A DNA stretch of 32,000 bases from Nanobdellota archaeon (GTDB lineage Archaea > Nanobdellota > Nanobdellia > Nanobdellales > Nanobdellaceae). Of this stretch, positions 4,489-22,367 are shown one piece after another. The translations under genes were made by a program, and so were the position numbers. The notes beneath the pieces are model-generated. The model was not told where the DNA came from and ran no database searches. It worked only from the letters and a program-made list of their open reading frames with translations. The stretch's first letter is position 1, and every line of letters starts with the position of its first letter. The DNA is taken from contig AP031373.1 of NCBI GenBank assembly GCA_042850255.1, positions 150,001 through 182,000 of the forward strand, read 5' to 3'.

Positions 4489-6183
4489 CTACCCTCTCTG
4501 GTTTTCATATAGGTTTTCTAATCTAGTTAATGTATCTGATTCCTCAGGAGATTTATCAGGTCTTAACCTTATAAATCTTGGAAATCTCAATGCATAACCA
4601 GAAGAATATTTGGGACTTTTCTGTATCTCATCATATAATACTTCTATAACTATTTTTGGTTTAATTTTTACATATTTTCCTTCTTGGGATTCAATTAAAG
4701 GTTTTAACATTTCCGTCATTTCTTCAAAAGTTACGTCATCTGGAGATTCTTTCTTTTCTTTAAATCCACTTCCAACTTCACCAACTTCCAAAAATCTACC
4801 AGTTTCTTCATCTCTTATAGCAATAACAAAAGATGTCAACCATCCACTTCTTTTACCTTCTCCCCACTCTGCACCTACTATTACTACATCTAACGATTCT
4901 TTAACAGGTTTTAGTTTTACCATATAACCAACCCTTCTTCCAGGATGATATGGAGCATCTAATTTCTTAAACATGACCCCTTCTAAACCATTTCTTATCG
5001 CCTCTTCAAAGAACTTTTGAGCTTCTTCATCAGATCCAGTAACAATATTCTCTGCTAAAGATAATTTACCTGGAGTTTGTTTTACAATAGATTCTAATAT
5101 TTTTCTTCTATCTTTAAATGGAGTATTTAATAGAGATTTTCCGTCATAATATACTATGTCAAATAATCTTACTTCAACGGGTATTTCTTTTACCATTTTT
5201 TCTATATCATATTTTCTTTTTATTCTTTGGGATATTCTTTGAAATGGTAAGTATTTTTTATTTTCTTTATCATAACCTACTATTTCTCCTTCTACTAAAA
5301 AATCTTTATCTTGAGGTAGACATTCTTTAACATATTGTACTACATCTGGAAATTGTTTAGTTACATTTTCTAATCTTCTAGTCCATAATATAATATTATC
5401 ACCTTTTTTATGTATTTGTACTCTAAACCCATCATATTTATATTCTACTTCTGCAGGCCTTCCAACAATATCTAAAGCTTCCTTAGCACTTTCTGCCTTT
5501 ATTGCCAACATAACCCTTATAGGGCTTCCTAATATTGGTTCTAATTTAAATACTATATCTTTTCCATTTTCCAGTATTTTTCTTACTAACTCTCCAAAAT
5601 CATTTAATATTGAATAGGACATTTCTACATTCTCTGATGGTAGTCCAAAAGCTTTTGCTATTGCTTCAATTATTATACCTTCCCCAACCCCTATTTTTAG
5701 ATCTTCTAATGCCAATCTTGCAATATATCTAGCCTCAACTGGAGAAGAAGAAACAAATAAATTTGCTAAATATCTTATTTTTTTATCTTGTGCTCCTTCT
5801 CCTTCTAATTCTCCAATTAATCTAAAGGTATTATATACATCCTTTACTGTTAATTTTTTAACAAATATTGTCTTTTGCTTTCTTTCACTTACTAATTTTT
5901 CTGCTACAATACCCAAATCGCCAGTTTTAACAAATAAATCTTCTATATAACTTTTATCATACCCTGTAGCAATTGATAAAGCTCTGATTGTAAATTTTTC
6001 ACCCACTCCTATTTCTTTATCTTCCCAAGGATAAAATATTGTACCTTGAATTAACATAAATGTCTCTTTTAGAGAATCTTTATCTATTTCTTTTATAAAT
6101 CTGGCAAGAATATCAGTTTTAGTAGTTTTTTCAGATACAGATTCCAATCTTTTAAAAGTTTGAGCTAATTTTTCAAATTCCAT
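4489..6183 (-). CDS. lig: ATP-dependent DNA ligase
   Basis: 564 aa with the adenylation motif EYKYDGFRVQIH (KxDG) plus EGEIV, EGVMFK and LKPV..LDVVIVGAEWGEGKR, the ligase motifs in canonical order. Confidence 0.95.
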   Translation of the reverse strand: MEFEKLAQTFKRLESVSEKTTKTDILARFIKEIDKDSLKETFMLIQGTIFYPWEDKEIGVGEKFTIRALSIATGYDKSYIEDLFVKTGDLGIVAEKLVSERKQKTIFVKKLTVKDVYNTFRLIGELEGEGAQDKKIRYLANLFVSSSPVEARYIARLALEDLKIGVGEGIIIEAIAKAFGLPSENVEMSYSILNDFGELVRKILENGKDIVFKLEPILGSPIRVMLAIKAESAKEALDIVGRPAEVEYKYDGFRVQIHKKGDNIILWTRRLENVTKQFPDVVQYVKECLPQDKDFLVEGEIVGYDKENKKYLPFQRISQRIKRKYDIEKMVKEIPVEVRLFDIVYYDGKSLLNTPFKDRRKILESIVKQTPGKLSLAENIVTGSDEEAQKFFEEAIRNGLEGVMFKKLDAPYHPGRRVGYMVKLKPVKESLDVVIVGAEWGEGKRSGWLTSFVIAIRDEETGRFLEVGEVGSGFKEKKESPDDVTFEEMTEMLKPLIESQEGKYVKIKPKIVIEVLYDEIQKSPKYSSGYALRFPRFIRLRPDKSPEESDTLTRLENLYENQRG

Positions 6184-6213
6184 AAAAAATAATTATGAAA
6201 AATAAATAAAAAT

Positions 6214-7302
6214 TTATAACAATAAGGTTTCTATTCCTAAGTTTGCATCCTTTACAAATTTACCAGTTTCCATTTCTTCTTTCCATTTTGATAACACATA
6301 TGGACTCTTGACTCCAGAAATTATAACTGTAGCTTTTATTCTTCCTTTCATTGAATCATCAATTCTTGCTCCCAATATAGTTAATGAATCTTCACCTAAA
6401 TATTTTCTTACATATTCTGCTACTTCATTTACTTCTTGTAAGCTCATATCTGGACCTCCAGTTACATGTATTAAAGCTCCTGTAGCACCTTCATAATTTA
6501 CATCTAATAATGGTAATTCCATTGCTCTCTTGGCTGCCATTTTGGCTCTTTCTTCTCCATCAGCAACACCAATGCCTACTATAGAAGCCCCTCCTCCTAT
6601 TCCTAATACAGTTTTTACATCTGCAAAATCTAAATTAATATATGAAGGTGTTGCAATTGTTTCTACTAATCCTTTTATCATCTGTCCTATAACATTATTC
6701 GCATATCCAAATGCTTGGGAAACTGGTAGATTACCTGCATATTGCAATATTTTATTATTATCTATTAATATAACATTATCTGCGTATTTTCTTAACTGTG
6801 CTAATCCTTCTTCTGCTTTTTCTCTTCTTACCAATCCTTCAGATGCGAAAGGTAATGTAGCTACTGCTACTACTAATGGTACTCCAGCTTCTTTTGCAAT
6901 TTGACAAACCACAGGAGCACCACCAGTACCTGTTCCTCCTCCTAATCCTAATGTAACCCAAACCATGTCTGCACCTTCTACCAATTTTCTTAAATCACTT
7001 TGAGATGCTCTAGCAGCTTCTAAACCTTTAGAAGGTAATCCTCCAGCACCTAAACCTTTTGTTACATCTTTTCCTAGCAATATTTTCTTATGAGCTTTAA
7101 CAATCTTTAAATGAGCATAATCTGTATTTGCAGCAATAACTTCTGCACCTTTTATATCCATTTTATATAACCAATCTGCCATATTAGAACCTGCTCCTCC
7201 TACTCCAACTATCTTTATTGTTGGTACCAATTTAAATTCCTCTCCTGGATTTACTCCTATTATTTCCTCTTGCTCACTTTTATTATAAATTTCTTCTGCC
7301 AT
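6214..7302 (-). CDS. ftsZ: Cell division GTPase FtsZ
   Basis: GVGGAGSNM, the tubulin signature GLGGGTGTGGAPV and NTDYAHL, with typical length. Confidence 0.95.
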   Translation of the reverse strand: MAEEIYNKSEQEEIIGVNPGEEFKLVPTIKIVGVGGAGSNMADWLYKMDIKGAEVIAANTDYAHLKIVKAHKKILLGKDVTKGLGAGGLPSKGLEAARASQSDLRKLVEGADMVWVTLGLGGGTGTGGAPVVCQIAKEAGVPLVVAVATLPFASEGLVRREKAEEGLAQLRKYADNVILIDNNKILQYAGNLPVSQAFGYANNVIGQMIKGLVETIATPSYINLDFADVKTVLGIGGGASIVGIGVADGEERAKMAAKRAMELPLLDVNYEGATGALIHVTGGPDMSLQEVNEVAEYVRKYLGEDSLTILGARIDDSMKGRIKATVIISGVKSPYVLSKWKEEMETGKFVKDANLGIETLLL

Positions 7303-9527: not shown

Positions 9528-10469
9528 ATGGATAAAGTTAAGGATATAAAAATAAATAAGGAAATGAAACTAAAGGATTTATTAGAGGAATTTAAATATA
9601 TAGGAGGATTTCAAGCACAGGAACTTTATAGAGCATATGAAATATTAAAAGAGATGATAAATGATAAAGGTATAATAAAAGTATTAAGTTTTCCTGCAGA
9701 TATAATTGCTACAGGTACAAGGGGGTTAATAAAAGATATTATAAAAAATAAGTTATTTGATATAGTAATAACTACTACTGGAACATTGGACCATGACATT
9801 GCTAAATTGACAAAAGACTATTATTTAGGATATTTTGATTCTGATGATGTAAAGTTAAGAGAAGAAGGAATATTAAGATTAGGAAATATTTATATACCAG
9901 ATGAAAATTACGGAATTGCAATTGAAGATACTTTAAAACCAATACTAAATGATATATTTAAAGAATTAAAAGAAAAAGGTAAGAAAAATATTGGAACTTA
10001 TGAATTAATATGGGAAATTGGAAAAAGATTAGAAAAATACGATAAAAAAGAGGAAAGTATAATATATTGGAGTTATAAAAATAGTATACCAATAATAGTT
10101 CCAGGAATAACTGATGGAGCAGTTGGGACACAAATATTAATGAAAGAATATGATTATCCAGATATACAGGTATCAGTATGGGAAGATGAAAAATTCTTAG
10201 CTAGTAAATTCTTTGGAGAAAAGAAAGTAGGAGCATTAATATTAGGAGGAGGTATATCAAAACATCATACAATCTGGTGGGCACAATTTTCTGGAGGGTT
10301 GGAATATGCAATATATATATCTTCAGCAAATGAGTTAGATGGAAGTTTATCCGGAGCAAAAACAAAAGAAGCAATAACTTGGAAGAAAATAAGAAAAAAT
10401 GCTAAACATGTAAATGTTTGGGGAGATATAACTATAATTTTACCACTACTAATGTTCGACTTTTTATGA
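9528..10469 (+). CDS. dys: Deoxyhypusine synthase
   Basis: 313 aa with ITTTGTLDHDI, ITDGAVG, LGGGISKHH and the overall DHS length. Confidence 0.85.
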   Translation: MDKVKDIKINKEMKLKDLLEEFKYIGGFQAQELYRAYEILKEMINDKGIIKVLSFPADIIATGTRGLIKDIIKNKLFDIVITTTGTLDHDIAKLTKDYYLGYFDSDDVKLREEGILRLGNIYIPDENYGIAIEDTLKPILNDIFKELKEKGKKNIGTYELIWEIGKRLEKYDKKEESIIYWSYKNSIPIIVPGITDGAVGTQILMKEYDYPDIQVSVWEDEKFLASKFFGEKKVGALILGGGISKHHTIWWAQFSGGLEYAIYISSANELDGSLSGAKTKEAITWKKIRKNAKHVNVWGDITIILPLLMFDFL

Positions 10470-10498
10470 ATTTAAATCTTTTTTAAATATATATTTTA

Positions 10499-11050
10499 AT
10501 GGAAGAACCAAAGTTTGATAAAAATAACGTAATTTTAATAGTATGGGATGTACAAAAAATGTTGGTAGAAAATATTTTTAATAAGGAAGAATTTTTGAAT
10601 GGATTAAATAGAACCATAGAATTTTGTAGAAAAAATAATATACCAGTATTATTTACAAAAATAACGCCATATCCAAAAGGATTTGAACCAAAGATATATA
10701 CAAAAATGAGATGGAGAGGAGAATTTAAGCCTGAAATGTTAGAATTATATATAAAACCTGATGAAAATGATATAATAATAAATAAAAATACATGGAGTTT
10801 ATTTGTAGGAACAAATGTAGAACTATTATTGAGAAATTCTGGAAGAAATATATTATTATTTACTGGAATAGCAACAGAAGTTGGTGTAGAAACTTCTGCA
10901 AGACATGCTTATGCATTAGGATTTACTCCAATAATAGTAGAAGACGCTGTATCCTCTAGTGATAAAGAAGGACATTTAAGATCTTTAGAAAATATGAAAA
11001 AATTCTTCTTAGTAATAAAATCTAGTGAATTAGAAAAATATATAATCTGA
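10499..11050 (+). CDS. Isochorismatase/cysteine-hydrolase-fold protein
   Basis: LIVWDVQ (Asp), INKNTWSLF (Lys) and GIATEVGVETSARHA. The last motif has Gly where the family nucleophile Cys normally sits. Confidence 0.75.
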   Translation: MEEPKFDKNNVILIVWDVQKMLVENIFNKEEFLNGLNRTIEFCRKNNIPVLFTKITPYPKGFEPKIYTKMRWRGEFKPEMLELYIKPDENDIIINKNTWSLFVGTNVELLLRNSGRNILLFTGIATEVGVETSARHAYALGFTPIIVEDAVSSSDKEGHLRSLENMKKFFLVIKSSELEKYII

Positions 11051-11098
11051 TTACCCTCTTTTCATCATTTTTCAGGCGACATCGATCTCTTCATATAT
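11045..11098 (-). ncRNA. Candidate C/D-box sRNA with variant terminal boxes
   Basis: The minus strand reads ATGAAGA-(12 nt GATCGATGTCGC)-CTGA-AAA-ATGATGA-(12 nt AAAGAGGGTAAT)-CAGA. The two 12-nt spacers are canonical. The outer C and D boxes each deviate by one base. The 3' end overlaps the stop codon of the isochorismatase-like gene. Confidence 0.5.
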
Positions 11099-11185
11099 TT
11101 TTTATAAAATTTAATATTAATATTTATTTTGTCGCACCTCCTAATCAATGAGGGAATCCGAGTATGAAGCTGGTGATACCGCGGT

Positions 11186-11383
11186 TTATCTTAATCTAGT
11201 TAATTTTTCATATTTATTATATTCTCCAATTAATTCATTAAGTATAGTTCTGATATCTCTAAATTCTTTAACTTCGATTTTAACGTTTCCTTTTTTAATT
11301 CCTTTTTCTTCTCCTTCTATTGCCTTTTCTAATTCTTTAGTTAAACTCTTCATTTTATTTAATATATGTTCTGGATCTTCCAT
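11186..11383 (-). CDS. Hypothetical small K/E-rich protein
   Basis: 65-aa ORF, helical and charged, with no recognisable motif. The plus-strand ORF 11148..11423 is its shadow. Confidence 0.4.
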   Translation of the reverse strand: MEDPEHILNKMKSLTKELEKAIEGEEKGIKKGNVKIEVKEFRDIRTILNELIGEYNKYEKLTRLR

Positions 11384-11461
11384 GGATTATATTTTAATTT
11401 TTGGATTATATAAATTTTTATAATAAAATATTAAGATTATATTTTCGATTTTATAGTATGA

Positions 11462-11782
11462 TTATCTTATATATTTTATTTTTTCATTTTCTAAAACTTG
11501 TAACTCTTGTATTTCTTTCCCCATTTCATTATATAAATTTATTATTTCTTTTAAATCTATAGCATCATTTCTTATTAATTTTCTTTCCTCATTCATATCC
11601 TTTTGTGCATTTTTAGGATGTTTTATTATATCATTTAATGGTTTTTCTTCCTTTTTAACTAAATTCAACTCATCTTTTATCTTTTTAACAAAATCTTCTG
11701 CCTTTTTCTCTAAATCTTGTAATAACTTTAATTGTCTTAGTTCTATATTTAATTCATTTGATAATTGATTTGGAGCACTCAT
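11462..11782 (-). CDS. Hypothetical coiled-coil protein
   Basis: 106 aa with a heptad-like K/E/L pattern and no family assignment. Confidence 0.45.
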   Translation of the reverse strand: MSAPNQLSNELNIELRQLKLLQDLEKKAEDFVKKIKDELNLVKKEEKPLNDIIKHPKNAQKDMNEERKLIRNDAIDLKEIINLYNEMGKEIQELQVLENEKIKYIR

Positions 11783-13006: not shown

Positions 13007-13078
13007 GGGCCCGTAGTCTAGTCGTAGGATGTCGGCCTGGCTAGCCGGAGATCCCGGGTTCAAATCCCGGCGGGTCCA
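13007..13078 (+). tRNA. tRNA-Ala (anticodon GGC)
   Basis: Hand-folded cloverleaf: acceptor GGGCCCG/CGGGTCC with the G3:U70 Ala identity pair, anticodon stem TCGGC/GCCGG, loop CTGGCTA, T-arm CCGGG-TTCAAAT-CCCGG, discriminator A. No CCA is encoded. Confidence 0.9.
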
Positions 13079-14281
13079 CTAATTTAGACTTCTATTTAAA
13101 ATCAAATTAGCGATTATTAAATAATCTCTTAGCTCTCTAGTTATTAAGAAATTTTTTCTAACATGTTCTTTTCCATTTTCTCCCAATTTTTCTCTTATTT
13201 CCTTATTTTTTAGTAAATACATTATATAATGAGCTGCTTCCTCTGGAGTATTTACTAAATATCCAGTCACATTATTAATTACTTGTAAAGGTATTCCACC
13301 AGTATTTCCACCAATTACAGGTTTTTCTTTCCATAAAGCTTCACTAATAGTTAATCCAAATCCTTCCTTTATAGATTTTTGAAGAACTACTGTAGCACTT
13401 CTCTGAAATGCATTGACTTCCAAATAACTATTAGGAGGCAACATTAATAATTTTATATCTTTATCATCACCTGCTACTTTAACAGTTTCTTCATATACTA
13501 CTTCACTTTCAGGATCATCAGAAGCTGGACTACCTAAATAAACTAATTGAACATCATAACTTGACTTTACTATTTTATAAGCTTTTATAACTCCTATAGG
13601 ATCCTTTGCCCTGTCAAATCTAGATACTTGTAATATTATTGGCCTTTCTGGATTTACATCATATCTATATAATATTCTTCTTATAGTTATTTCTGGTATT
13701 TCTTTATTTCTAGGACTCAGAGGATCTATAGATGGTGGGACAATATATTGAGGTTTGTTTATATCATCCCTACCAAATATTTGAGATGATACTATTATAC
13801 TATCATATTGTTCTACATATTTCTTTAAAAAACTCCAAACAGGTTGATAAGGATTTGAAATATCTATATGACATCTCCATATCCACTTACCACCTTTTTT
13901 AAATTTTATTAAACCTAAAGGTTGAGGATCGTGAACAAATATTATATCATAATCTAGATCTAATTCTTCCCCATTTATTTCTTGCCATCTATTGTATATT
14001 TGAAAAGCATCCTTTGGTAAATTTCCAAAACCATTTTGCAAAGAATTATGAAAAGACTTTGTTACAGTAAAGAATTCTTTATCTCCTCTAATAATTTTCC
14101 AATCAGTTTCTATACCAAGTTCCTTCATCAATGGAACTATCCTATTTAATATTGTAGCAACTCCTCCACCACTTGGAGTAGAATTTATATGAAGTATAGA
14201 TACTCCATTCAATTTCTCCGCTATTTTTATAATATTATCTAATTCCTCTTCCCCTATTATACTTTCGTATTTTTCTATCAT
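13079..14281 (-). CDS. treT: Trehalose glycosyltransferring synthase (TreT-type GT4 glycosyltransferase)
   Basis: HINSTPSGGGVATILNRIVPLMKELGIETDWKII.G...FF.VTKSFHNSLQ, HDPQP, WRCHID, PPSIDPLS, QVSRFD and EGFGLTISEALWKEKPVIG are collinear with archaeal TreT as I remember it. The stop codon directly abuts the tRNA-Ala 3' end. Confidence 0.8.
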   Translation of the reverse strand: MIEKYESIIGEEELDNIIKIAEKLNGVSILHINSTPSGGGVATILNRIVPLMKELGIETDWKIIRGDKEFFTVTKSFHNSLQNGFGNLPKDAFQIYNRWQEINGEELDLDYDIIFVHDPQPLGLIKFKKGGKWIWRCHIDISNPYQPVWSFLKKYVEQYDSIIVSSQIFGRDDINKPQYIVPPSIDPLSPRNKEIPEITIRRILYRYDVNPERPIILQVSRFDRAKDPIGVIKAYKIVKSSYDVQLVYLGSPASDDPESEVVYEETVKVAGDDKDIKLLMLPPNSYLEVNAFQRSATVVLQKSIKEGFGLTISEALWKEKPVIGGNTGGIPLQVINNVTGYLVNTPEEAAHYIMYLLKNKEIREKLGENGKEHVRKNFLITRELRDYLIIANLILNRSLN

Positions 14282-14958
14282 GAAAATATTAATTCTTCTA
14301 TTCTTTTTATTATTTCCTGCCTTAATTTCTCTCCATCATCATAAATTATTGGATCTATAGAAGATAAAGAATCTGACAGAGTCCTTAAACCATAGTTTTC
14401 CTCTATCCATAAAGAAAAATCATTTTTTGTAGTTTCTCCCATTAATCTTCTAAATATAAAATGATAAATTATAGAATTTATAGATATTACTGAAATATTA
14501 TCTATTAATTCTCCTAAATCTTTTGCTATCTTATCATTTTTAAATATAAATGGAGTACAAGAAATAAAAATAAATGGTTTAGATGCTTTTTCATCAATTT
14601 TATTTTCTTCTAATATTTTTATTATATCATTTCTAATATTTTCTATATTTTTAGGTTCTCTTCCATCTAATTTAGATAATTTTTTAGATAATTCTATATC
14701 ATGTAATTCTTCTTTTACCCATAAAGCGAAATCATTATGTAATTCTCCAGGAACTGTATAATTTATAAATAATTGATGAAAAACATGGTAAAATATAGAT
14801 AATTTATCTACTTTCTTTATTCCCTCAATTAATTGGTTTACATCATATGCCTTTATATTTGTATATTTAGGGATATAGTATGAACTTAGAAATTCAAAGG
14901 GTTTTTGTGCTGGTTTGTCTAATAATTCTTTATCAATCATGGAAAATTTCTTATACAA
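14278..14958 (-). CDS. Hypothetical protein with an internal two-fold repeat, ATGA-coupled to treT
   Basis: The repeats are SIFYHVFHQLF...NDFALWVKEE...LSKLD and SIIYHFIFRRL...NDFSLWIEEN...LSSID. There is a 4-nt overlap with the treT start. Confidence 0.65.
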   Translation of the reverse strand: MYKKFSMIDKELLDKPAQKPFEFLSSYYIPKYTNIKAYDVNQLIEGIKKVDKLSIFYHVFHQLFINYTVPGELHNDFALWVKEELHDIELSKKLSKLDGREPKNIENIRNDIIKILEENKIDEKASKPFIFISCTPFIFKNDKIAKDLGELIDNISVISINSIIYHFIFRRLMGETTKNDFSLWIEENYGLRTLSDSLSSIDPIIYDDGEKLRQEIIKRIEELIFS

Positions 14959-15136: not shown

Positions 15137-15207
15137 GCACCCGTCGTCTAGTGGTAGGATGCGGGCCTTCCAAGCCCGCGGCCCGGGTTCAAATCCCGGC
15201 GGGTGCA
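15137..15207 (+). tRNA. tRNA-Gly (anticodon UCC)
   Basis: Acceptor GCACCCG/CGGGTGC, D-arm GTCT-AGTGGTA-GGAT, anticodon stem CGGGC/GCCCG, loop CTTCCAA, T-arm CCGGG-TTCAAAT-CCCGG, discriminator A. No CCA is encoded. Confidence 0.9.
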
Positions 15208-15411: not shown

Positions 15412-16713
15412 ATGGATATTATAGTTGGAAGGTCTTTAGATGATTTAGAAAAATATGGTTATTTAGGATCTATTTACATTGGAAAAGAATATATAAAAAT
15501 GGAAAATGCCATATCATTAGCAAATAAAGTATATTTAGATGTTAACTTGCCACATTTAATATTAATTGCTGGAAAAAGAGGACAAGGAAAAAGTTATACA
15601 TTGGCTTCTATGTTTGAAAGTTTATCATTATTGGAAAAAGATTTATTAGAAAATTTTTCAGGATTGATATTTGATACTATGGGTATATTTTGGACAATGA
15701 AGTTTCCAAATTATAGAGATGCAGAATTATTGGAAAAATGGGATTTAAAACCTCAATCTGTTCAAAATGCTAGAATATTAGTACCTAGAGGATTAATAGA
15801 TGAATATAGAAAAATAAATATACCTATAGATGATGTTTTTGAATTAAATCCTGCAGATTTATCTGGAATAGAATGGGCTCTAACATTTAATTTAGATCCT
15901 TCCTCAACAATCGCATTATATATACAAAGAATAATAAAGAAGATGAAAGAAAATTCCAATGGGTATTCTATACAGGATATAATAGATTATACTCAAAAAT
16001 TAAATATTGATAATAAAATAAAAAATGCTATAATAACATATTTTGATAGTGCAGATAGTTGGGGTTTATTTTCTGAAAAAGCAGAAACAATTAGAAATTT
16101 AATAAAACCTGGGTATATAAATATTCTAGATGTTTCATTATATACTGCAATAACTGGTGGATGGTCTATAAAAAATTTAGTTATAGGATTAGTAGCTAAA
16201 AAAATATTTTATCAAAGATTATTATATAGAAAGGTCGAAGAACTAGAAGAAATATATATTTCAAAAGAATTAGGTAATAGAAAGTTTCCATTAATTTGGA
16301 TGGCAATAGATGAAGCACATGAAGCATTGCCAAATGATTCTATAACTCCAGCAACAGAACCTTTAATACAAATAATAAGAGAAGGAAGACAGCCTGGAAT
16401 AACATTAGTATTAGCAACTCAGCAACCTGGAAAAATGCATACAGATGTTATAACACAAAGTGATGTTGTAATTTCCCATAGAGTAACTGCAGAAAAGGAT
16501 TTAAAATCTTTAAATGAGATAATGAAAAATTTTACTGCACAAGATATAGATATTTATATGAATGAAAATTTACCAAAAAGAAAAGGAGCCGCATTAATTT
16601 TAGATGATAAATCTGAAAAAATATATCCTGTACAAATGAAACCTAGATTTTCTTGGCATGGGGGTGCAGATCCTACTTTAATTAGAAAGAGATTATGGTT
16701 AGAATCCAAGTAA
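15412..16713 (+). CDS. HerA/DUF87-like P-loop ATPase (FtsK-HerA superfamily)
   Basis: Walker A is AGKRGQGKS and Walker B is LIWMAIDEAHE. Also present are REGRQPGITLVLATQQPG, ISHRV and a C-terminal KPRFSWHGG. The track starts at TTG 15391. I prefer ATG 15412, which has TTTATTAA about 30 nt upstream. No transmembrane segment is present. Confidence 0.85.
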   Translation: MDIIVGRSLDDLEKYGYLGSIYIGKEYIKMENAISLANKVYLDVNLPHLILIAGKRGQGKSYTLASMFESLSLLEKDLLENFSGLIFDTMGIFWTMKFPNYRDAELLEKWDLKPQSVQNARILVPRGLIDEYRKINIPIDDVFELNPADLSGIEWALTFNLDPSSTIALYIQRIIKKMKENSNGYSIQDIIDYTQKLNIDNKIKNAIITYFDSADSWGLFSEKAETIRNLIKPGYINILDVSLYTAITGGWSIKNLVIGLVAKKIFYQRLLYRKVEELEEIYISKELGNRKFPLIWMAIDEAHEALPNDSITPATEPLIQIIREGRQPGITLVLATQQPGKMHTDVITQSDVVISHRVTAEKDLKSLNEIMKNFTAQDIDIYMNENLPKRKGAALILDDKSEKIYPVQMKPRFSWHGGADPTLIRKRLWLESK

Positions 16714-18737
16714 AAGAAGTAGAAGGTGTAATTGCAATTGTTATATTTATTTCATTTTTAACATTTTATTTAGCAATGTATAGAAGTTATATAACAAATA
16801 GAATAGATAATTTTAATCAATTAAATTATTATAATACATACTTAAATCAAATATTAAATAATATAGAAGCTCAATATTATTTATTATCATTAAATATTAC
16901 CATACCAATTTCTATGTATTATCAATGTTCATTAGGTTCTCCAATATATGTTAACTTGCTGGGATATAATGCTTATAATGATTTTTGCACAAATTTTCCA
17001 ATATTTTATCCTTTAAATATATCTTTTTTAACCAATTATTCTGGAGTTTTAAATGATACAAATAATACATATTTAGATCCAAATATTGGTTTATATTTTT
17101 ATTTAAATATAACAAATTTAACTATTAATAATAATCAACCACAATATGTTCTAATAAATATTTCAAATCCTACAAACAATAATATAGGACCTATAAATTT
17201 ATTTATAACTTCTCCAGTAATTTTTTATTGGCTACAAAATGGAAATAATTTATCAGTAAATAAATATAATACGTTTTCAGTCCAATTTTGTTATGAAAAT
17301 GGAAATTTTAACTGTAATAGTAATAATAATGGAGCTTATGGGATTTGGTTAAGTGATATGTACATTCCAGCAAATAGCTACATAGTATTAAATATTTCAC
17401 CTTCTTCAAATAATAATGATGCAATAAATGGAAATAATATATTTGCATATTATAACAATAGTCAAATAGATTCTATCTTTGGTCAAACAAATTTGAATAT
17501 AAATTATATAAATCCTGGATATTATTTAATAATATTCAACGCTTCTACAATATCAAATAATGGATATATACAATTTGGGAATTGCAATATAAATATACCA
17601 AATACTATCGGTTTTAATTATAATTTTGCTTATCTTTGTTATCTAAATCAATCTACAAATTCTATAATTATAAATAATATTGATTTAAACTATATAGTAA
17701 TATTATACTATTATAGCATAGTACCAGAAATTAATGTTATTTATCAACCAAATATAACTTCAACTTTTAATTTTATTATAGGACCAAATTTAACCTATAA
17801 TTTTTCTCAATATAATGATCTAGGATATAATAGTAATAGTATATATAATAGTCACATAGAATATAATGAAAACTTAATTACATCATCTGGCTTTTATTAT
17901 TCATCTCTCAATTTTAGCAACATTTATAATAATTATATTTTATTTAGTTCTTTGTATACTTCCCAAAACGAACCTTATTATTTAAATTCTAATTATATAG
18001 TAAATGATTCTCTAGCATTATTGTATTTATATTCTAACAATTATTTATCTATTAAAAAAATATTATTTTCCAATACATATTGGTTTATTATAAATACAGA
18101 AAAATATTATGATTCTACGAATATGATTTATTGGAATACAAATTTACCTACTTATGGATTTCAAGGATATTATTACATTAACTTTTATGATATACCATTA
18201 TCTCTTCAATTTTCTCTATTAAATAACTATTCTTTTTATCCATATGAAAATGGAATACTAATTTCTAATGGTGTAAGCAATTATGCTATTTTATTTACAA
18301 ATTATAATCCTATTATAAATTTAACAGATGATAATGGAGAATGCTTAGAAACAGGTCAAGGATGTATGCTAAATTTGACATTACTAAATAATTATCAATA
18401 TGAAAATTATTATTTATATTTTTATTATAATCGAAGAATAATAGACTATAGTACTGCAGAATATCTATCATTTTCTACACAAATCCCAATATTAAAAATA
18501 AATTATATAGAACCAATTAATGTAATAAATATTAATAATTTGATTTCTATATCTTCAAATTACCCAAATATTTATTTTTACTTTAAAAATCTAAATATTA
18601 CAATATATAATGGAACTGTTTATCAAGGAAATATAGTAAACAATTATGAATATTCTCAACAATATAATGTATATATATTAAATAATACAGTTGTAAATAC
18701 TTTATATAAGGATAAAATGATAATATATATAAAATGA
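16695..18737 (+). CDS. Large N-terminally anchored Asn/Tyr/Ile-rich putative surface glycoprotein
   Basis: 680 aa. The N-terminus MVRIQVKEVEG-VIAIVIFISFLTFYLAMY is followed by an ectodomain with about 24 N-x-S/T sequons (hand count) and 8 Cys in four local pairs. The start overlaps the ATPase stop by 19 nt. Confidence 0.75.
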   Translation: MVRIQVKEVEGVIAIVIFISFLTFYLAMYRSYITNRIDNFNQLNYYNTYLNQILNNIEAQYYLLSLNITIPISMYYQCSLGSPIYVNLLGYNAYNDFCTNFPIFYPLNISFLTNYSGVLNDTNNTYLDPNIGLYFYLNITNLTINNNQPQYVLINISNPTNNNIGPINLFITSPVIFYWLQNGNNLSVNKYNTFSVQFCYENGNFNCNSNNNGAYGIWLSDMYIPANSYIVLNISPSSNNNDAINGNNIFAYYNNSQIDSIFGQTNLNINYINPGYYLIIFNASTISNNGYIQFGNCNINIPNTIGFNYNFAYLCYLNQSTNSIIINNIDLNYIVILYYYSIVPEINVIYQPNITSTFNFIIGPNLTYNFSQYNDLGYNSNSIYNSHIEYNENLITSSGFYYSSLNFSNIYNNYILFSSLYTSQNEPYYLNSNYIVNDSLALLYLYSNNYLSIKKILFSNTYWFIINTEKYYDSTNMIYWNTNLPTYGFQGYYYINFYDIPLSLQFSLLNNYSFYPYENGILISNGVSNYAILFTNYNPIINLTDDNGECLETGQGCMLNLTLLNNYQYENYYLYFYYNRRIIDYSTAEYLSFSTQIPILKINYIEPINVININNLISISSNYPNIYFYFKNLNITIYNGTVYQGNIVNNYEYSQQYNVYILNNTVVNTLYKDKMIIYIK

Positions 18738-19054
18738 GAAACTGGATAATACTTGTAGAACTGGCATTTTCAATAATTTTATTATCTTTTTTCTTTTTAT
18801 ATAATTATTATTTTAAATTTCCAAATCAAAATATACAAAATTATGATCCAAAAATATTAGAAAGTTTAAATTCTTCTTGTAATAATAATTTGTATATTTA
18901 TGAAATAATAAATCTAACAAATAATAATATTACAATATGCTATTTTGGAAAAAGTGTGAATTATACATATATACAAAACCTACAACCTGTATTTGAATAT
19001 TTATATGCAGGGCAAAATAGTTATAACCCTTATATATTAATAATATTCTCATGA
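18734..19054 (+). CDS. Small N-terminally anchored Asn/Tyr-rich protein
   Basis: 106 aa with MRNWIILVELAFSIILLSFFFL, then 4 sequons and 2 Cys. ATGA overlaps at both ends. Confidence 0.65.
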   Translation: MRNWIILVELAFSIILLSFFFLYNYYFKFPNQNIQNYDPKILESLNSSCNNNLYIYEIINLTNNNITICYFGKSVNYTYIQNLQPVFEYLYAGQNSYNPYILIIFS

Positions 19055-19491
19055 AATCACAATATATATTATTAGCAACCATATTTATAATAGTTATTTT
19101 ATCTGTTTTGACATATTATAATATAAGACCAATAAATAATATTAATGAAAATTTAATAGGAAATAATTTTGAAGAAGAAATAAAATATATATACAAAAAT
19201 TTTGGATACAATTATATAGGAAATTATACATTATATTTTGAAAATTATACTAGTTCTATAAATTATAATTTCTCTTTTATATGTATATCTTCATATAATT
19301 TATCTTTACCACAATGCAATGGAAATAATGTAGATTGTTGTTATTATTTTTCAGGATATTTTAATGTAAATCCTTCTATATTAAAATATTGCAATGAAAA
19401 CTTTATATTATATAATCCTCCAAACTGGATATGTTTTTGCTATAACATAAATAGATCTAATGAATATTATACAAACTTCTTCTGTATTTAA
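19051..19491 (+). CDS. Small N-terminally anchored Cys-rich, Asn/Tyr-rich protein
   Basis: 146 aa with MKSQYILLATIFIIVILSVL, then 5 sequons and 8 Cys concentrated in the C-terminal half. ATGA-coupled to the upstream ORF. Confidence 0.65.
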   Translation: MKSQYILLATIFIIVILSVLTYYNIRPINNINENLIGNNFEEEIKYIYKNFGYNYIGNYTLYFENYTSSINYNFSFICISSYNLSLPQCNGNNVDCCYYFSGYFNVNPSILKYCNENFILYNPPNWICFCYNINRSNEYYTNFFCI

Positions 19492-19958
19492 CATTGGTAT
19501 ATATAATAACCATTTTCTGTTTTATTTAATATTAAACAAATACTATTACCATATATTGTGTAGTTATTTGATGTAATTGAAAAAGGGATAGTATTCATTG
19601 TAAAATTGTATAAATAATAATTATAGGATAATTGGGTAATATTCAAGTTAATATAAGAAGGTAAAGTTAAAGAATAATTTATTGGAGAATAATATATACT
19701 TTCTATTTCTCCTGGAAATATATATATTGTTAATCCATTTGGTATATCTTCCTGAAATTTATAAGTACAAGAATAACAGGATCCTATAAGATCTATTTGA
19801 TAATTTAAATCTGTCAATAAATTAACAGTATATTTTAAGTTTATTTGAGCTTGTTGATTAGAGATAGTTATATGTACATAGTATAATAGTATGGATAAAA
19901 CAGCTAAAGCAAAAGATGTATATATTAAAAACTCAACCCATAAACTAATACCTTTCAT
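19488..19958 (-). CDS. Prepilin-like N-terminally anchored Asn/Tyr-rich protein
   Basis: 156 aa. MKG-ISLWVEFLIYTSFALAVLSILL resembles a class III signal peptide (K-G, then a hydrophobic run with Glu). It has 5 sequons and 4 Cys. Its start is ATGA-coupled to the rps19e stop, and its stop overlaps the converging ORF's stop (TTAA). Confidence 0.65.
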   Translation of the reverse strand: MKGISLWVEFLIYTSFALAVLSILLYYVHITISNQQAQINLKYTVNLLTDLNYQIDLIGSCYSCTYKFQEDIPNGLTIYIFPGEIESIYYSPINYSLTLPSYINLNITQLSYNYYLYNFTMNTIPFSITSNNYTIYGNSICLILNKTENGYYIYQC

Positions 19959-20726: not shown

Positions 20727-20863
20727 CAAAATATATATGTATTAATTGTAAAAGAGTTATAGATCATGAAACTGCATTAAAAAGAGTTAAATGTCCATAT
20801 TGTGGATCTAAAATATTAGTAAAATTGAGACCAGAAACTGTTAAAAAAGTAAAAGCTATATGA
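20723..20863 (+). CDS. rpoP: RNA polymerase subunit P (Rpo12/RpoP)
   Basis: My translation is MTKYICINCKRVIDHETALKRVKCPYCGSKILVKLRPETVKKVKAI* (46 aa), which has the CxxC...CxxC + ILxKxRP pattern of RpoP. Too short for the ORF track. ATGA overlaps on both sides. Confidence 0.8.
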   Translation: MTKYICINCKRVIDHETALKRVKCPYCGSKILVKLRPETVKKVKAI

Positions 20864-21060
20864 AGGTAATAATAAAAGATTTAGATAAAGATTTCATAGA
20901 ATCTATAAAATTTTTAGAAAGGGAAGAAAAGATAAAAATAGAAGGGGATAAAATTATTATAGAAAAAGATGAAGAATCAAAACTAAGAGCCCAATTAAAT
21001 TTAATATTTAGGTTATTAAAAATAAATGATAATCTTATCAGACTATTGTCCAATTTGTAA
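20860..21060 (+). CDS. Possible minimal Pcc1-like KEOPS subunit
   Basis: IKIEGDKIIIEKDEESKLRAQLNLIFRLLKI resembles the Pcc1 core (LxxEGxxLxxxIxAxDxxxLRAxxNSxLRxxKV). Its position after rpl37ae-rpoP fits a common archaeal neighbourhood. It is shorter than typical Pcc1. Confidence 0.45.
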   Translation: MKVIIKDLDKDFIESIKFLEREEKIKIEGDKIIIEKDEESKLRAQLNLIFRLLKINDNLIRLLSNL

Positions 21061-21514
21061 TTCAAAGAATATTGAAATAGAAAATATAGAATATGATTTT
21101 CCAAAAATAGGGAAATCAATATTATATGTATTTAAATGTAAAGATTGCGGATATAAGACATCTGAAATAATTCCTTTAGAAGAAAAACAACCTGTAAAAA
21201 TAGAAATAAAAATAGATAATCAAGAAAAATTTAAAATGATAATACTAAAGTCTCCTTATGCAAAATTAATATTAAAAGAAATAGATTTGGAGATTTTACC
21301 AGGTATAGAATCTAAATTTGAAATAAAAGCTTTAGATGATTTAATAACAAATATTAAAGAAAAATTAGAATCCATGAAACCTTTATTTATTGATGAAAAA
21401 GACAAATATGATAAATTAATCGAAAAAATAAATTATTTAGAAGATGTTTTAAAAAATAAAAAAGAATTAACTATAATAATAGAAGATGAAAAAGGTTATT
21501 CAATGATTTACTAA
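21026..21514 (+). CDS. ZPR1-type C4 zinc-finger protein
   Basis: CPICNS...(F)KCKDCGYKTSEIIP followed by a beta-rich domain, as in archaeal single-module ZPR1 homologs. Confidence 0.7.
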   Translation: MIILSDYCPICNSKNIEIENIEYDFPKIGKSILYVFKCKDCGYKTSEIIPLEEKQPVKIEIKIDNQEKFKMIILKSPYAKLILKEIDLEILPGIESKFEIKALDDLITNIKEKLESMKPLFIDEKDKYDKLIEKINYLEDVLKNKKELTIIIEDEKGYSMIY

Positions 21515-21939: not shown

Positions 21940-21981
21940 TTAGTTATTATTTTTGTTTATCTTATTGATTATCAATAAAAA

Positions 21982-22338
21982 TTATTTAGATTGTAAATTG
22001 GATTTTTTTAATAAATCTTCTAATTCTTTTGCAAGGGAATTTAATTTATCTCTATATAAATCTGATTGTTTCTTCAAACTTTCAGATTTTATTTTAAATA
22101 CTTCTTTTTCTTCATTTAATCTATCTATTAATTCCTTTTTATCTTTTTCTACTAATACGTTACCTACTAATAAATATACCTTTTGTCCTTCACTTAAATT
22201 ATTCAATTCTTTTAATGCGTTTTCTATTTCATCCAAATCTTGTAATATTTTTGATCTTTGTGCTTCTACAAGTAAATATGCTTGTCTCATCTTTTCATAT
22301 TCTTCATATTTTCTTTCCAATTCTTCTTCACTAACCAT
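21982..22338 (-). CDS. pfdB: Prefoldin beta subunit
   Basis: 118 aa with coiled coil, hairpin (KVYLLVGNVLVEKDK) and coiled coil. The plus-strand ORF 21953..22351 is its shadow. Confidence 0.85.
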   Translation of the reverse strand: MVSEEELERKYEEYEKMRQAYLLVEAQRSKILQDLDEIENALKELNNLSEGQKVYLLVGNVLVEKDKKELIDRLNEEKEVFKIKSESLKKQSDLYRDKLNSLAKELEDLLKKSNLQSK

Positions 22339-22367
22339 TTTTATAATTTAATTATAATATTTTTAAA

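Follow-up and report, generated by a model that had tools for sequence, protein, structure and literature searches.

Is a long open reading frame (ORF) of extreme amino acid composition in an AT-rich nanoarchaeal genome a real gene and, if so, what might its product do? This question is raised by a 680-amino acid (aa) protein encoded in a 32,000-nucleotide stretch of a Nanobdellota archaeon genome (GenBank assembly GCA_042850255.1, contig AP031373.1, positions 150,001 to 182,000; hereafter "the window"), which an earlier reading made from the sequence alone (hereafter the original prediction) had singled out for its composition, paired cysteines, and many glycosylation sequons. We found that this protein is a divergent member, confined to hyperthermophilic Nanoarchaeota, of the DUF2341 adhesin-like proteins known from archaeal type IV pilus systems. 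Its sequence and gene neighborhoods suggest, with a probability that we place at roughly 55%, that it acts as an N-glycosylated, disulfide-stabilized adhesin which, together with minor-pilin-like partners, belongs to a type IV pilus-like system for host attachment.

Domain composition of the 680-aa protein

The gene and the regions of its product are as follows.
16695–18737 (including the stop codon), + strand: gene of the 680-aa predicted surface protein, start MVRIQVKEVEG, identified from the ORF and its translation, homologues, synteny, and the ratio of non-synonymous to synonymous substitution rates (dN/dS)
16695–16784, + strand: predicted class III (prepilin)-like signal/anchor, MVRIQVKEVE-G / VIAIVIFISFLTFYL, the sole hydrophobic segment
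16866–17138, + strand: conserved domain 1 (aa 58–148), with invariant C78 and C98 and conserved sequons at N67, N108, N120, and N123
17142–17471, + strand: DUF2341 (PF10102) domain (aa 150–259), from profile evidence, with the C199-x7-C207 motif "FCYE..G.C"
17472–18434, + strand: central variable beta-rich region (aa 260–580), with indel hot spots, C297 and C315, and the genome-specific C550 and C557
18435–18734, + strand: conserved C-terminal domain (aa 581–680), of low entropy, with conserved sequons at N634, N639, and N663

Searched alone, the 680-aa sequence had no Pfam match at E ≤ 10, PF10102 included, and none in NCBIfam. The domain could be identified through relatives and profiles. 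A HMMER search with the family profile found 36 proteins among 1.84 billion representatives; the matches outside the family (>20 proteins) align to positions ~150–260, and all ten of the distant matches scanned carry PF10102. One distant family member (P0055) scores 24.5 bits against DUF2341, above the Pfam cut-off of 23.4, in a stretch that aligns to residues ~213–255 of the 680-aa protein. When the family was aligned by hhalign to 14 DUF2341 domains, residues 150–259 matched with 98.6% probability (E 8.9e-16), and a local hidden Markov model built from 14 such domains recovered the 680-aa protein at E 2e-13. The DUF2341 motif set (NPN...Q[VI]..., FC[YF]E..GEC, [IV]W[IV]K[IV]P.IPA.G, and A[VI].G..VF.FYDDF) has counterparts in the same order and spacing, namely NISNPT, FCYENGNFNC, YGIWLSDMYIPANS, and AINGNNIFAYYNN. 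The pair C199-x7-C207 is the conserved "FCYE..GEC" motif of these domains, and the domain of the 680-aa protein also has the pattern "YGIW...IPAN...LNIS...NG..IF.YYN". The family thus consists of DUF2341 domain proteins, and the likeness to this domain that the original prediction had noted at the level of patterns is borne out, over precisely the sequence cited there, by the Pfam pass of P0055, the family-profile matches, and the hhalign result. This provides a domain assignment for a family now listed as hypothetical in databases.

The other regions are specific to the family. Domain 1, which includes the lowest-entropy block of the family alignment (FPIYYPLNISFLTNYSGVLNNTNNTYLDPN), is confined to nanoarchaeal relatives in the family-profile search. 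Similarity to other DUF2341 proteins ends at about residue 259, and no homology was detected downstream of the domain to the ConA-like domain that follows DUF2341 in other archaeal proteins. The spacing of the cysteine pairs had been taken as a hint of an internal duplication of a disulfide-bearing module; we rejected such a repeat, as profiles of six segments, compared with one another in all 15 pairings, matched with probabilities of 3.8% or less, and the fourth cysteine pair is not conserved among relatives.

Among the proteins found by the family profile, one bacterial sequence of 3098 aa (P0183) contains ~10 stretches matching the DUF2341 region of the family. It also scores just under the Pfam cut-off for a pilin N-methylation motif (20.4 vs 21.2 bits, E 4e-4), a hint that in bacteria DUF2341 repeats may be borne directly on a type IV pilin-like anchor.

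Composition, conservation, and divergence

The window, from a tiny parasitic archaeon of hot springs in the Nanopusillaceae (Nanoarchaeota), is AT-rich (~24% guanine–cytosine, GC) and carries housekeeping genes for S19e, L37ae, FtsZ, SepF, prefoldin, GluRS, ribosomal proteins, and 5S rRNA. At 20% GC, the gene encodes a protein with 18.8% asparagine, 13.2% tyrosine, 13.2% isoleucine, 1.5% lysine, and 2.4% glutamate. Relative to the window's 29 other ORFs outside its cluster (N 2–13%, Y 2–8%, K 8–22%, E 4–17%, I 3–18%), it is enriched in asparagine and tyrosine and depleted in lysine and glutamate. The original prediction had described a dominance of N, Y, and I beyond that of the window's housekeeping proteins, which holds for the first two; the isoleucine content is unexceptional because the reference ORFs span 3–18%. 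Three adjoining small ORFs, each with an N-terminal hydrophobic segment and paired cysteines, have the same N/Y-rich, K/E-poor composition. It is thus a signature of a small exported-protein cluster and not of the 680-aa protein alone. Such an N/Y/S/T-rich, K/E-poor make-up fits acid-exposed extracellular proteins in the AT-rich genome of a thermoacidophile. Because lysine and arginine together make up only 2.2% of the 680-aa protein, trypsin-based proteomics would miss it.

The remaining features described in the original prediction, i.e., the extreme composition, eight cysteines, about 24 sequons, and one N-terminal anchor, were all reproduced from the ORF translation. The cysteines form four local pairs (78/98, 199/207, 297/315, and 550/557). 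There are 24 N-x-S/T sequons, a modest excess over chance since composition-preserving shuffles already yield 17.3 ± 3.4 (P ~0.04). In a hydrophobicity scan, KD19 peaks at 2.29 (residue 9) and reaches no more than 1.29 in the rest of the protein, hence a single, N-terminal hydrophobic segment, from which the whole body of the protein is predicted to be extracellular, as also proposed originally.

Searching 5.8 billion proteins yielded 57 homologues, most of them full length and 50–55% identical. All belong to Nanopusillaceae or related Nanoarchaeota, with Nanopusillus acidilobi and Nanobsidianus stetteri among them. In 10 of the 10 genomes compared locus by locus and gene by gene, the gene has an intact syntenic orthologue of 551–753 aa; a missing or frame-disrupted ORF in close relatives, proposed earlier as the sign of a non-functional sequence, was not seen. 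Across seven close genome pairs among these 10 (pairwise NG86), the median dN/dS is ~0.25, compared with 0.05–0.13 for neighboring housekeeping genes. The gene is under purifying selection, and its dN/dS, its intact orthologues, and the 57 homologues confirm that it is a real gene and not an artefact of AT bias.

Purifying selection is uneven along the protein. In most comparisons both ends have dN/dS values of 0.1–0.25, while the center (~aa 226–525) is mostly at 0.3–1.0, and alignment entropy and indels peak at aa 281–340, 381–420, and 521–560. In every genome pair the 680-aa protein is the most diverged of its neighborhood (in one example 62% identical, with neighbors at 73–93%). Top divergence, indel hot spots, and raised central dN/dS together form the pattern expected of a host-facing protein; Nanoarchaeota surface proteins have been reported to carry an excess of non-synonymous single-nucleotide polymorphisms (PMC6142677).

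An alignment of 32 sequences shows no variation at C78, C98, C199, and C207, and 91–94% conservation of C297 and C315; only this genome has C550 and C557. Relatives have instead cysteines at positions aligned with residues 411 and 527, i.e., the local C550-x6-C557 pair replaces a long-range pair. Relatives also carry a 33-column insertion after aa 274, with an extra cysteine pair in half of them, which is absent from the 680-aa protein, the shortest of the close family. At 15 of the 24 sequon positions, 86% or more of 28 relatives also have a sequon, although these relatives are only ~55–60% identical to the 680-aa protein. Further conserved sequons include N155, N233, N353, and N560.

A pilin-like N-terminus and three small neighbors

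According to a review of archaeal pilins (PMC4371748), processing of a prepilin requires that position −1 be G, A, or S and that position −2 be charged. In all Nanopusillaceae orthologues of the 680-aa protein, the only hydrophobic helix begins with KE[VI]E-[G/A] / [VIL]IAIVIF, which follows this rule with E at −2, G or A at −1, and then a hydrophobic H-domain. The N-terminus thus resembles the class III (prepilin) signals of Archaea. Downstream lie the three small genes of similar composition (slashes mark the predicted processing site):
18734–19054, + strand: 106-aa pilin-like protein, MR[SGN] / W[IV]IL[VL]E..., with two conserved cysteines and a conserved helix glutamate
19051–19491, + strand: 146-aa pilin-like protein, MK[ST] / QYILLA..., with eight cysteines
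19488–19958, − strand: 156-aa pilin-like protein, M[KR][G/S/D] / [IV]SLW[VI]EF..., with four conserved cysteines including a CxxC, and a conserved helix glutamate

The first of these is exactly 106 aa long in 10 genomes, including Nanoclepta, with a dN/dS of 0.08. The second is 146 aa long in all genomes examined, and its glutamine at +1 resembles EppA-type prepilin substrates (PMC4371748). The third gene is convergent with the second, overlapping it by 4 nt; its product is 156 aa long in 10 genomes and has the orthologue MJ1_0640 in Nanobdella aerobiophila, and the text of a preprint on the Nanobdella cell surface does not mention the orthologous cluster genes. A homologue search with the 156-aa protein returned six sequences only, too few for a useful structure model. 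The three lengths are invariant as far as Nanoclepta minutus despite only 32–40% identity. None of the three small proteins had a match when scanned directly against Pfam and NCBIfam. The class III rule holds in most, not all, of the small-protein orthologues, so that their fit to prepilin processing appears good but imperfect. No prepilin peptidase gene was found in the window. The original prediction had recognized the N-terminal anchor but overlooked its pilin-like character, these three co-conserved neighbors, and the type IV pilus link seen in related lineages.

Gene neighborhood across Nanoarchaeota

The gene order DUF87 ATPase, large protein, 106-aa, 146-aa, and 156-aa protein (the last in reverse), then S19e, is kept in Nanopusillus, Nanobsidianus, and Nanoclepta, as well as in two more divergent lineages. 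In one metagenome-assembled genome (GCA_054017035.1, locus L021), the module consists of the ATPase, a 541-aa homologue (matched by the family profile at E 8e-18 and by the DUF2341 profile at E 2.5e-14), and counterparts of the 106- and 146-aa proteins of 92 and 130 aa, and it directly abuts two T2SSF (TadC-like) genes and one T2SSE (PilB/FlaI-like) gene. In two other genomes, archaellin-type genes and a second DUF2341 protein lie within 1–3 kb of the cluster. In GCA_038823625.1 (L104), an archaellin-type gene (PF01917, MKG/IASV...) is found divergently upstream, as is a canonical DUF2341 protein with an N-terminal transmembrane segment, and the region downstream of the cluster in GCA_964573185.1 (L020) contains archaellin-type genes as well as the start of a canonical DUF2341 protein. 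This second module of archaellin-type and DUF2341 genes spans positions 5009–6852 (−) in L104 and 10311–11764 (+) in L020, and is absent from the window.

Other features of the window were noted along with the cluster. Genes for trehalose synthase (TreT) and a DUF5752 protein, overlapping by 4 nt (13079–14958, −), sit between tRNA-Ala (13007–13079) and tRNA-Gly (15137–15207); a Nanopusillus locus (L002) has an ATPase_2/DUF4143 gene at this position, which therefore represents a variable spot beside the conserved cluster. At 1769–2677 (−), a 302-aa ORF with a weak match to UPF0020/RMKL-like methyltransferases (N 12.6%, K 15%) occupies the most AT-rich kilobase of the window (16% GC). Two pairs of mirror ORFs, 21953–22351 (+) versus 21982–22338 (−) and 20856–21119 (−) versus 20860–21060 (+), place long ORFs opposite the prefoldin gene and a small conserved ORF; these antisense frames are most likely artefacts of AT-rich sequence poor in stop codons and not genes.

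Structure predictions

AlphaFold2 models reached a mean pLDDT of 53 for the full-length protein and 67 for aa 1–372, and both show a helix over residues 2–59 followed by beta-rich domains. In the full-length model, confidence is ~80 for aa 599–680, with beta strands, and low across aa 372–597, a region without a usable model. The Foldseek comparison suggested in the original prediction gave no match against the PDB at E ≤ 1e-3 and no pilin, and PDB sequence-profile searches with the family and DUF2341 profiles detected no solved structure of a relative. For the N-terminal half-model, the top local alignments by Foldseek are to CBM6/CBM35 and PA14 jelly rolls (probability 0.98–1.0; root-mean-square deviation 3.3–4.2 Å over 84–92 columns); their E-values are only 0.05–0.3 and their identities 12–25%, at a moderate model confidence (pLDDT 67). 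Such a likeness is compatible with a beta-sandwich fold class, and does not indicate homology or sugar binding.

Proposed mechanism and alternative explanations

Five parts would make up the 680-aa protein: a class III-like helix, a disulfide domain, a DUF2341 beta-sandwich, a fast-evolving center, and a conserved C-terminal domain. Membrane entry would most likely occur via the N-terminal helix, by Sec-independent or class III-type insertion, after which a prepilin peptidase may cut after Gly11. The ~15 conserved sequons are probable sites of N-glycosylation, and three conserved disulfides probably lock the protein, which would suit life at ~80 °C and pH 3–4. The 680-aa protein and its three small pilin-like neighbors would assemble into an adhesin-bearing complex that primes or tips a type IV pilus-like filament. 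A PilB/FlaI–TadC machine encoded elsewhere in the genome would build this filament, and the DUF2341 and variable domains of the 680-aa protein would be exposed, touching the host cell surface.

We favor this pilus-adhesin role because the protein combines a DUF2341 domain with a prepilin-like N-terminus and a long helix preceding beta domains, because its three co-conserved small neighbors start with [KR]-[G/S] and a hydrophobic segment, and because in related lineages the cluster adjoins TadC/PilB-like or archaellin-type genes. Archaeal type IV pilus loci include DUF2341 proteins, for which a role as tip adhesins has been predicted (PMC4858521), and the epd pilus locus of M. maripaludis contains a DUF2341 gene in which transposon hits abolish pilus-dependent transformation (PMC10133366). 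A 2026 preprint describes type IV filament (TFF) systems of DPANN and Nanoarchaeota with two platform genes and a PilY-like adhesin (10.64898/2026.04.22.720090). The proposed N-glycosylation is consistent with N. acidilobi, whose cells, growing at 82 °C and pH 3.6, have a lectin-detected glycosylated surface (PMC4935971).

Several observations weigh against a pilus. No pilus machinery genes were found in the window, nor within 7 kb at the Nanopusillus and Nanoclepta loci, and adjacency to TadC/PilB genes was found in the L021 lineage only. At position −1, the 106-aa protein of this genome has N, and D and T are seen among the small proteins of Nanoclepta. Neither the four proteins nor their distant orthologues match a Pfam pilin family at E ≤ 10, and the Foldseek search described above returned no pilin either. 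Some of these observations would suit a second possibility, less probable than a pilus adhesin yet the most serious competitor, namely that the 680-aa protein is a stand-alone, type II (N-in/C-out) membrane-anchored surface receptor or adhesin, or an S-layer-associated protein, that never enters a filament. Its N-terminal helix would then be an uncleaved anchor, and the small proteins its membrane partners in a contact-site complex. The imperfect −1 position of the small proteins, the missing pilin matches, and the lack of nearby pilus genes in Nanopusillaceae all fit this possibility, and so do the ordinary Sec-type signals, as opposed to pilin N-termini, of most archaeal DUF2341 proteins retrieved, and the small membrane area covered by nanoarchaeal host contact (PMC4935971). 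It leaves unaccounted for, however, the E-[G/A] and hydrophobic pattern conserved exactly where the helix begins, the conserved helix glutamate in two of the small proteins, the TadC/TadC/PilB and archaellin-type adjacency in related lineages, and the ties between DUF2341 proteins and type IV pili in the literature (PMC10133366, PMC4858521). Identity as an S-layer protein itself was rejected, as the only anchor is N-terminal and the sequence does not resemble the S-layer proteins proposed for Nanoarchaeota.

A further set of alternatives involves the gene immediately upstream.
15412–16713, + strand: HerA-like DUF87 ATPase, 433 aa (Pfam DUF87 E 3e-10; solved HerA structures E 1e-8)
Judging from orthologues, it most likely starts at the conserved ATG at 15412, and it overlaps the 680-aa gene by 19 nt. 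The ATPase precedes the large gene in every nanoarchaeal lineage found, and the hydrophobicity scan detected no membrane segment in it. While it shares the DUF87/HerA core of the HerA/FtsK superfamily, it belongs to a distinct family of ~435 aa spread throughout DPANN (5085 homologues, 42–50% identical); NCBIfam models of true HerA and anti-phage HerA give it 30–39 bits against cut-offs of 800–970, and no NurA-like gene occurs in its neighborhood, which differs in this from a HerA–NurA system. In 80 metagenomic DPANN loci and seven individually examined non-nanoarchaeal or deeper loci, the ATPase was found without a DUF2341 or family partner. Within 7 kb of it, the 80 loci contained no T2SSE gene, two T2SSF genes, and one prepilin peptidase gene, and 6 of the 42 ORFs downstream of it had an N-terminal hydrophobic segment. 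Only in hyperthermophilic Nanoarchaeota is it always joined by overlap to a DUF2341 surface-protein gene. Since the link is confined to this group, we demoted the ATPase from a defining component to a conserved neighbor, which is probably all that it is to the 680-aa gene.

It is unlikely, then, that the ATPase, the 680-aa protein, and the small proteins form one FtsK/HerA-type, ATP-driven assembly or translocation machine that operates independently of PilB at the host interface. The ATPase and large genes overlap by 4–19 nt, the ATPase stays the constant upstream neighbor even where the large protein has diverged nearly past recognition, and Pfam scans of its family show weak Zot, FtsK, and TrwB-like signals. 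Nevertheless, the same family occurs in thousands of other DPANN genomes and lacked any such partner in the 80 loci, which had almost no pilus genes and few hydrophobic downstream ORFs; the ATPase has no membrane segment, and overlaps of unrelated genes are common in this compact genome. Slightly more doubtful still is the idea that, in hyperthermophilic Nanoarchaeota, the universally conserved HerA-like ATPase of DPANN was recruited to power a pilin-like, DUF2341-tipped structure at the host contact; if this were true, it would drive assembly or the translocation of a substrate (DNA or nutrients), and the structure would be FtsK/HerA-powered and distinct from PilB-driven type IV filaments. 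Finally, a spurious or non-functional low-complexity ORF produced by extreme AT bias, as 20% GC, a very N/Y/I-rich sequence, and the missing Pfam and NCBIfam matches of the single sequence might suggest, has a negligible probability, already refuted by full-length orthologues in all related genomes, invariant cysteines, conserved sequons and blocks, a dN/dS of 0.25, and a recognizable domain.

Comparison with known systems

For the pilus-adhesin role, the cluster provides a four-gene candidate set for host attachment, made up of a large DUF2341 protein with a fast-evolving center and three minor-pilin-like proteins. This set bears on how Nanoarchaeota recognize and hold specific hosts, and is directly testable in the cultivated Nanopusillus–Acidilobus and Nanobdella–Metallosphaera co-cultures. 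In a 2016 census of archaeal type IV pili, the cognate pilins of one nanoarchaeal ATPase clade could not be identified (PMC4858521).

The closest known relatives are the DUF2341 proteins of archaeal pilus loci (the arCOG03508 group; MMJJ_08210 in the M. maripaludis epd locus), which have a homologous domain and share the motifs FCYE..G.C, W.K.P.IPA, and NG..VF.FYDDF. They, too, are large, are secreted or anchored, are encoded together with several small proteins bearing class III signals, and have a predicted adhesin role at the pilus. Outside residues 150–259, however, no similarity to the 680-aa family is detectable, and the latter has its own N-terminal domain, variable center, and C-terminal domain, is restricted to hyperthermophilic Nanoarchaeota, and, unlike these relatives, itself bears a pilin-like helix. 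Its gene also differs in not being located beside pilus ATPase or platform genes in this genome.

With archaeal class III signal proteins in general (type IV pilins, archaellins, and FlaFind positives), the 680-aa protein shares the −2/−1 rule, an H-domain of ~20 residues that opens a long helix, and a beta-rich, presumably N-glycosylated body. The cluster differs from them in that the leaders of the small proteins are only 3 aa long with a variable −1 residue, and in that none of its four proteins has a Pfam pilin or archaellin match.

In bacteria, the priming or tip complexes FimU–PilVWX–PilY1 and, in the type II secretion system (T2SS), GspH–I–J–K are composed of small pilin-like proteins and one large partner. 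PilY1 and GspK have no sequence, Pfam, fold, or Foldseek match to the 680-aa family, the C-terminal beta-propeller of PilY1/PilC has no Pfam match at E ≤ 10 in 32 family members and no Foldseek match, and archaeal processing rules differ. The organization is nonetheless alike: three or four small pilin-like proteins accompany one large, adhesin-bearing partner, and the largest subunit lacks the helix glutamate that the smaller ones have. By this analogy, and as an inference only, the 680-aa cluster may be a functional equivalent of these bacterial complexes.

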